49,610 nucleotides of DNA. Origin: Escherichia coli (GTDB lineage: Bacteria > Pseudomonadota > Gammaproteobacteria > Enterobacterales > Enterobacteriaceae). The position numbers were made by a program, and so were the translations under genes. Numbering within the stretch: position 1 is the first letter of the stretch; each line of letters begins with the position of its first letter. Under the pieces are notes generated by a model that searched no databases, had not been told where the DNA came from, and worked only from the letters and a program-made list of their open reading frames with translations. The stretch lies in assembly GCF_003334305.1 (NCBI RefSeq), contig NZ_QOWS01000028.1, one strand, 5' to 3'. This document shows positions 25,333-25,687 of the stretch, one piece after another.

Positions 25333-25346
25333 TAGCGTCAAAAAAA

Positions 25347-25372
25347 GCCCCGGCAAGTTTTATTGTCGGGGC
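25347..25372 (+). terminator. Hairpin immediately after glcB (possible partial terminator/attenuator)
   Basis: gccccggcaa / ttgtcggggc 10-bp stem (one G-U pair), 6-nt loop; no T-run follows, so termination efficiency is doubtful. Confidence 0.35.
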
Positions 25373-25687
25373 TATGATAGTAACTGCGGTAGTACATTTA
25401 TCCCGGAAATAACCGGAGCGATTATCAGGGTTTAACAATATTAAATACCCGTAGCGCATTACTAGCGGGCCTATAACAACAATATGGACATCTTAACGAT
25501 ACTCTGCGCCTGCGTGTGCAGAACAGAAACCCTTACCCGATATACTTGTTATGCCAGAGGTAGCAATTGCGTTAGCGGCGTACTGTTGCTGTAAAGTATA
25601 ACGCCTATATTTTACAGTTCAGTCCTCTTTTGCTTATTACAACCTTAAGTATATCAAGCATATAAAGATAATAAGAGACTGAACAAT

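Follow-up and report, generated by a model that had tools for sequence, protein, structure and literature searches.

Closest described systems

In the GadY system a cis-antisense small RNA encoded in the intercistronic spacer of gadX-gadW directs the cleavage of the dicistronic mRNA by RNase III. The junction between glcB and glcA in Escherichia coli has the same architecture: a candidate RNA gene, C0719, is located on the opposite strand in the spacer of a co-transcribed gene pair, and the upstream cistron has a stable 3' end. The likeness is one of architecture; pairing-dependent cleavage, binding of Hfq and a phenotype are without support here. The two systems also differ in that C0719 overlaps the leader of the downstream gene, and not just the end of the 3' UTR of the upstream gene.

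C0719 is reportedly a candidate small RNA from the oligonucleotide-array survey of Tjaden et al. in 2002, and the array probes are said to have set the boundaries of the family (Rfam RF00117). The spacer analysed here contains a near-identical, full-length match to this family, in the same genomic context and on the strand opposite to the glc genes. The boundaries of the family exclude a predicted terminator 16 nt downstream and a promoter-like motif about 40 nt upstream.

The glc strand can be compared with protective stem-loops found between cistrons or at 3' termini, and with the hairpin-defined processed 3' ends of Rho-terminated transcripts, with which it shares a GC-rich stem without a U-tract after the cistron, a transcript end a few nucleotides beyond the stem, and a downstream cistron which is lower or uncoupled. 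Other primary 3' ends in the Term-seq table of Adams et al. (2021), e.g. those of talB and can, follow a hairpin without a U-run, which makes this class of ends an ordinary one. The minus strand resembles a canonical intrinsic terminator in its GC-rich stem, 6-nt loop and U7; it departs from one by the A.C inside its stem and by the lack of a reported 3' end, and the glc strand by having no U-tract.

Pseudomonas entomophila (locus L027) has the same glcB-glcA gene order with a palindrome in the spacer, and its GlcA-like protein is 79% identical. In contrast to the enteric loci the spacer is about 112 nt, shows no homology to the enteric spacer, and carries a REP-like palindrome: at 5185-5245 of that locus there is a long, perfect palindrome of the Pseudomonas REP type, CCCTATCGCGGG...CCCGCGATAGGG. 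As this palindrome is unrelated, an intercistronic hairpin at the glcB-glcA junction arose independently there.

Our explanation of the E. coli locus is that a leaky hairpin, which forms the 3' end of the glcB message and stabilizes it, lowers glcA relative to glcB, and that the same palindrome terminates the cis-antisense RNA C0719. We consider this explanation a probable one. It should be noted that public resources already contain the spacer, the 3' end of glcB and the C0719 family, and the finding is in this sense known and largely ordinary. What is added here is the hairpin as the likely missing terminator of C0719, the retention of the stem while its sequence drifts, the near-invariance of about 190 nt in front of glcA, and a conserved extended -10-like motif. 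The locus illustrates how an enzyme and a permease can be made at different levels from one operon by means of a hairpin in a long untranslated spacer, and one palindrome here can serve both strands. The question which is sharpened is a minor one, namely whether C0719, listed as a small RNA since 2002, is real and what causes the constraint on the 190 nt. The answer would lead either to the removal of a questionable entry from the databases or to an additional antisense switch in a well-studied operon, and would change no major concept.

The spacer between glcB and glcA

The window, by which we mean the whole stretch of 49,610 nucleotides analysed, is a segment of the E. coli chromosome which by annotation carries glcC, glcDEFGBA, sslE and gsp genes. 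The annotation was taken from strain E2863, which is identical to the window across the 601 bases compared. The following features define the spacer:

23161-25332, plus strand: glcB, malate synthase G, the upstream cistron (open reading frame of 723 aa; annotated in E2863 and MG1655)
25333-25687, no strand assigned: the glcB-glcA intercistronic spacer, 355 nt (from open reading frame boundaries and conservation)
25673-25678, plus strand: AAGAGA, a Shine-Dalgarno-like sequence for glcA (read from the sequence)
25688-27370, plus strand: glcA, glycolate permease, the downstream cistron (open reading frame of 560 aa; annotation)

The glcB gene stops with a TAA at 25332, with an in-frame TAG next to it. 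The positions of this stop and of the glcA start give a spacer of exactly 355 nt, 25333-25687, which is the interval that a preliminary description of this DNA had reported as an ORF-free, non-coding spacer. The list of open reading frames and the comparison with relatives agree with this: the only frames which touch the spacer are mechanical ones, one of 36 aa on the plus strand (25484-25594) and one of 76 aa on the minus strand (25229-25459) which extends into glcB, and neither is conserved. The 36-aa frame is reduced to 24 aa in the diverged lineage represented by locus L123 and to 12 aa in Klebsiella; its ATG is missing in Citrobacter. The frame of 76 aa on the minus strand is frameshifted by an A6/A7 polymorphism. 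Six-frame comparisons with Klebsiella and Citrobacter match several frames equally well, i.e. there is no preferred frame. The idea that the spacer is a gene for a small protein was rejected, as neither frame is conserved in phase or length.

Two further identities were rejected. The hairpin is not a REP, BIME or IS-remnant repeat since, unlike these, it is present as a single copy in nearly every E. coli genome which has the region; no Rfam repeat family matches the spacer. A known riboswitch or leader was dismissed because no Rfam cis-regulatory family gives a match in the window or in the homologous loci.

The open reading frame upstream, of glcF length and ending at 22730, is intact in the window. 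In the RefSeq genome of E2863 glcF is annotated as frameshifted (L002, 16328-17531).

The hairpin on the two strands

Two features at the start of the spacer are considered here:

25340-25346, no strand assigned: A7 run on the plus strand, equal to the U7 tract of a terminator on the minus strand (read from the sequence)
25346-25373, no strand assigned: GC-rich hairpin, 10-11 bp on the plus strand and 7 bp, a mismatch and 3 bp on the minus strand (from folding z scores)

The hairpin starts 14 nt past the glcB stop codon. G25347-A25356 pair with U25363-C25372 to give 10 bp, of which one is a G.U; A25346-U25373 would make an eleventh pair, and the 6-nt loop is GUUUUA. The preliminary description had pointed to this 10-bp stem (25347-25372), and the stem is real: the energy on the plus strand is -21.3 kcal/mol against -9.7 +/- 2.7 kcal/mol for dinucleotide shuffles, none of the 200 shuffles being as good (z = -4.34). 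It had also been noted that no U-tract follows, and on the glc (plus) strand the stem is indeed followed by UAUGAUAG, with 3 U in 8. Of the two elements of a canonical intrinsic terminator, the plus strand has the GC-rich stem-loop and lacks the U-tract.

What was overlooked in the earlier work is the A7 run directly 5' of the stem. Read on the minus strand, the hairpin consists of 7 bp, one A.C mismatch, 3 bp and a 6-nt loop and is followed by UUUUUUU; its energy is -16.4 kcal/mol (z = -3.30). By form, with a GC-rich stem and a U7, this is a canonical intrinsic terminator. The element is canonical in one direction only and does not qualify as a bidirectional terminator, as the A-tract is present 5' of the stem and the U-tract is absent on the plus strand. 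A scan for terminators returned nothing on either strand at the hairpin; the one on the minus strand was missed because the scan allows no internal mismatch. The Rfam model of Spot 42 aligns its own terminator to the hairpin and U-run with a sub-threshold score (19.8 bits, E = 0.59). Identity with Spot 42 was rejected, the weak match being a resemblance between terminators only.

Despite substitutions, 13 sequence variants from four genera have all retained the stem, which was found in E. coli, E. albertii, an E. albertii-like lineage, Klebsiella/Raoultella and Citrobacter. The flanking A-run, which is the U-tract of the minus strand, is 4-7 long in all lineages examined. It is polymorphic: the window and some metagenome contigs have A7, MG1655 and most contigs A6, E. 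albertii A5 and the L123 lineage A4. This polymorphism changes the length of the U-tract of the minus-strand terminator.

Fold energies on the plus versus the minus strand are -21.1 versus -15.2 in E. coli, -19.1 versus -15.2 in E. albertii, -17.8 versus -15.6 in the L123 lineage and -26.9 versus -19.1 in Citrobacter. For one E. albertii-like sequence the strands do not differ in energy, and in Klebsiella the minus strand has a slight advantage. The individual base pairs give a similarly mixed result which picks no strand: a G.U in the stem core of four lineages is an A.C on the other strand and is tolerated only on the plus strand, while an A.C near the loop in two or three lineages is a U.G on the other strand and is tolerated only on the minus strand.

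The 3' end of the glcB message and its coupling to glcA

The preliminary description considered the hairpin and the long spacer compatible with partial termination plus an internal promoter or a processing site, and named 3' ends and internal 5' ends from transcriptome or Term-seq data as a way to check this. One such end is available for the glc strand:

25377, plus strand: equivalent of the Term-seq 3' end of the glcB mRNA (Adams et al., 2021), 5 nt past C25372

Supplementary file 1 of the Term-seq study of MG1655 (Adams et al., 2021) gives a 3' end at 3121590(-), on the glc strand, classed as primary for glcB and as antisense to C0719, with 47,630 reads; it is found in the sheet for LB at OD600 2.0 alongside 3' ends internal to glcD. 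The 61-nt sequence printed there places the end at the A of GGGGCUAUGA. The peak is a modest one, as 47,630 reads should be seen against a floor of about 23,469 for the called minus-strand peaks, and it was called under a single condition out of three. The data set obtained with bicyclomycin (Rho) at OD 0.5, where the operon is off, has no entry at the spacer, and the spacer contains no pronounced C-over-G region of the kind that marks a strong Rho loading site.

The coupling of the two genes was taken from an RNA-seq compendium of 3,376 data sets. Evidence for co-transcription of glcA and glcB is given as NO (P = 0.38), versus 0.74-0.76 for glcB-glcG, glcG-glcF and the next pair, and the called unit is glcDEFGB (3121634-3128021), from which glcA is left out. 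RegulonDB, on the other hand, has glcDEFGBA as a single unit, and glcA is de-repressed or activated along with glcD by PdhR and LldR. A glcA gene which is co-regulated and yet poorly coupled is what a leaky stop between glcB and glcA predicts. The end at 25377 and the missing co-transcription call thus uphold the part of the earlier suggestion that concerned partial termination or processing. Two properties of a protective or processed 3' stem-loop were found, namely a mapped end just past the stem and an uncoupled downstream cistron.

The part that concerned an internal promoter fared less well. It could be hypothesized that glcA has its own promoter in the spacer and that the hairpin merely ends an independent glcDEFGB unit. 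The low co-transcription probability and the end of the called unit at glcB would fit, as would the strong conservation of the 190 nt in front of glcA, and a weak candidate, TTTACA-18-TATTAC, can be read from the sequence at 25611-25640. This candidate lacks the last T of the -10 hexamer, however, and is unconserved in Klebsiella and Citrobacter; a scan for consensus sigma-70 promoters (paired -35 and -10) found nothing in the spacer on either strand, and hence no match on the plus strand for glcA. The joint control of glcA and glcD by PdhR and LldR, regulators which glcA shares with the operon promoter, and the single unit of RegulonDB are also at variance with a separate promoter, which we find unlikely.

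According to the explanation that we prefer, the leaky hairpin would be the in vivo end of most of the glcDEFGB message. The 3' ends would arise in the untranslated spacer, through weak termination that depends on the hairpin or through Rho or RNase acting further downstream, and 3' exonucleases would halt at the stable stem and leave a tail of 4-5 nt. The stem would protect the enzyme-coding part of the message. A fraction of the transcripts would read through to glcA and be translated from a leader of about 310 nt, and the permease message would thereby be kept below the enzyme message and partly uncoupled from it. On the other strand the palindrome and U7 would end C0719, transcribed within the spacer toward glcB, just before it reaches glcB. 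In this scheme the hairpin, the mapped end on the glc strand, the weak co-transcription call, the match to the C0719 family and the constraint on the sequence are observations; we infer how the 3' end is formed, that glcA is supplied by read-through, and where C0719 starts and ends.

Conservation of the spacer

The region is found in 4544 of 5426 complete E. coli genomes, at 4557 places, with a median of 1 copy and a maximum of 2. The neutral reference for the P values below is the rate at synonymous sites between E. coli and E. albertii. Two further features are needed:

25501-25687, no strand assigned: the most constrained part of the spacer (identity to E. albertii and to L123)
25501-25520, plus strand: predicted 7-bp hairpin UCUGCGC/GUGCAGA (minimum free energy fold of the single sequence and consensus fold)

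With E. albertii (L003) the spacer shares 94.4% of its positions, compared with 76% for synonymous sites (P = 4e-21). Identity at third codon positions amounts to 78% for glcB and 72.5% for glcA, and the figure for the intergenic sequence 3' of glcA is 69%. The constraint is unevenly distributed. The hairpin segment drifts at about the neutral rate (84%, P = 0.15) with the stem kept in every variant, 25378-25500 is 91% identical, and in 25501-25687 as many as 184 of 187 positions (98.4%, P = 9e-19) are identical to E. albertii and 181 of 187 (96.8%) to a second diverged lineage (L123, L124). It is not obvious why a stabilizer followed by a leader should need 98% identity in primary sequence over 190 nt.

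These data contradict the notion that the spacer is neutral, left-over sequence in which the palindrome arose by chance. A patchy taxonomic distribution, and the rearrangement breakpoints and IS insertions within the spacer or beside it, could be taken in its favour, but neutral DNA would not be expected to reach 94.4% where synonymous sites reach 76%, nor to keep the stem under drift, nor to recur as a long, hairpin-bearing spacer in three other genera. We give this notion practically no credence.

Other enteric loci were reached through homologues of GlcA. Orthologues with 88-89% identity are found in the Klebsiella/Raoultella group and in Citrobacter freundii, where the glcB-glcA spacers are 398 and 415 nt, respectively. 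Both have kept the GC-rich hairpin, preceded by an A5 run and not followed by any U-run. Blocks common to three genera are ATGGACATCTTAA, (U)CUGCGC...GUGUGC and CUUACC, and the 40 nt 5' of the glcA start are conserved in Klebsiella and Citrobacter; the remaining parts of the spacer are unalignable between genera. That an A/T run has stayed beside the stem in four genera amid unalignable sequence argues that the minus-strand terminator is under selection as well. Most likely the palindrome is functional on both strands. A further locus, L086, was dropped from the set of homologues, since its context is that of lldP.

Could the long leader be a dedicated cis-regulatory RNA, responding to a metabolite, a protein or a small RNA and controlling read-through or the translation of glcA? 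The strong constraint on the sequence and the blocks common to three genera would be in line with this, and the whole spacer folds better than its shuffles on the plus strand (z = -2.95, against -1.2 to -1.6 on the minus strand). A 7-bp helix which pairs 25501-25507 with 25514-25520 is predicted within the cross-genus blocks. On the other side, no cis-regulatory family in Rfam matches, large parts of the leader cannot be aligned between genera, and consensus folds of 11 sequences from four genera carry a net covariation penalty on both strands, establish no compensatory pairs, and share only the terminator core and the one 7-bp helix. We therefore regard a dedicated switch as quite improbable, and the leaky, stabilizing hairpin is retained as the preferred explanation.

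Some observations on the distribution of the region were made along the way. About 16% of the complete E. coli genomes are without it. Among the enterics, the matches listed in a scan with GlcB included only E. albertii, and the nearest after E. albertii among the matches listed was Pseudomonas (GlcB 66%, GlcA 79-80%). The enterics seen with GlcB/GlcA were limited to Escherichia, Citrobacter and some Klebsiella/Raoultella. Such a patchy occurrence suggests that the region was acquired horizontally and has been lost repeatedly. In the E. coli strain PEC408 (L125, 4001-5307) homology ends just past the hairpin (at about 25380) and is followed by the IS5-like element ISKpn26; glcA is missing, and close by there is a Zorya defence system of type II. 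With the breakpoint at this place, the hairpin stays with glcB when glcA is lost. Three metagenome contigs diverge abruptly from the window, at about 25478 (L120), at about 25571 (L122) and inside glcB (L107); such breaks could reflect rearrangement, insertion or chimeric assembly.

The candidate RNA C0719 on the opposite strand

A small regulatory RNA had been named as one of the options for the spacer. A candidate is indeed catalogued here, but on the opposite strand, which the earlier reading did not see:

25388-25609, minus strand: C0719, candidate small RNA, Rfam RF00117 (cmscan)
25648-25656, minus strand: extended -10-like motif TGATATACT (TGnTATAAT with one mismatch; motif search)
25340-25641, minus strand: the antisense transcript at its putative full length, about 300 nt (from the -10-like motif and the terminator)

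The match to RF00117 has a score of 295.2 bits (gathering threshold 50; E = 2.9e-78) and covers positions 1-222 of the 222 in the model; E. albertii matches with 272.7 bits. Like the family, it lies between glcB and glcA (yghK) and is antisense to glc, and its score is above gathering. The model gives no match in Klebsiella or Citrobacter at E < 0.01. As the annotated 3' end stops 16 nt short of the stem, the hairpin with its U7 is likely the terminator of C0719, placed outside the Rfam boundaries. C0719 would in that case start near 25640 and end at the U-tract, and would be longer than the 222 nt defined by the arrays.

The motif in front of this putative start is rare. TGnTATAAT with at most one mismatch has 15 matches on both strands of the 49.6-kb window, versus about 29 in shuffles. 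The TGn and positions A2 and T6 of the hexamer are conserved in Klebsiella (TGGTATGCT) and Citrobacter (TGGCATGTT). The supplements of the Cappable-seq, SMRT-Cappable-seq and ROSE studies contain no entries for the locus. A change of TGATATACT to TGATCTGCT would abolish only the putative promoter of C0719.

Data on expression and function are few. One RNA-seq study, which places C0719 at U00096.2 3119380-3119601(+), found very low counts under most conditions and higher ones in the transition and stationary phases. Overexpression altered neither biofilm formation nor motility, and a transposon insertion at the C0719 site reduced the retrohoming of a group II intron, an effect left unexplained. 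C0719 has been scored as lost on two branches, that of phylogroup E with S. dysenteriae and that of S. boydii with S. sonnei. It is not annotated in the current RefSeq record of MG1655, nor by PGAP. The Term-seq tables have no 3' end on the C0719 strand at 3121200-3121799 in any of the three conditions, and hence none at the U-tract of the minus-strand terminator, which low expression may explain. The antisense RNA may be rare, or it may be an artefact.

A model centred on C0719 would make it a gene of about 300 nt for a small RNA with its own extended -10 promoter and terminator, whose GadY-like pairing directs the cleavage of the spacer RNA, creates the glcB 3' end and uncouples glcA. The minus-strand terminator, canonical in form and with a U-tract conserved across genera, fits such a model, and so do the full-length match to Rfam, the rare motif with its conserved key positions and the low but inducible reads; function on both strands would also explain the near-invariance of 25501-25687. 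Yet the Term-seq tables are silent on this strand, the gene was dropped from the current annotation of MG1655, overexpression is without biofilm or motility phenotype, the Rfam model finds nothing in Klebsiella and Citrobacter, and the minus-strand fold of the spacer is not unusually stable. The induction shares its growth phase with the glc operon and could be explained by carry-over from the sense strand. We are inclined to doubt the model.

A more far-reaching proposition is that C0719 truly exists as a conserved cis-antisense RNA, about 300 nt long and running from the motif at 25648-25656(-) to the hairpin and U-tract at 25340-25373, that its pairing sets the balance between cutting or trimming of the message and read-through to glcA, and that 25501-25687 is constrained by both strands. 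This is a speculative proposition, for which we would give rather long odds. If true, it would provide a second antisense switch of the GadY type within an operon in E. coli, setting the ratio of enzyme to permease in the use of glycolate.

Other features of the window

Rfam reports naRNA4/CssrE (RF02564), a nucleoid-associated RNA of the REP type, at window positions 77-153 on both strands, with 92.6 and 60.1 bits. At about 10145-16437 the annotation of E2863 has extra lptF/lptG-like genes beside genes for a serine palmitoyltransferase, an acyl carrier protein, an epimerase and a fatty acyl-AMP ligase, and this looks like a cluster for a sphingolipid-like lipid, which is unusual for E. coli.
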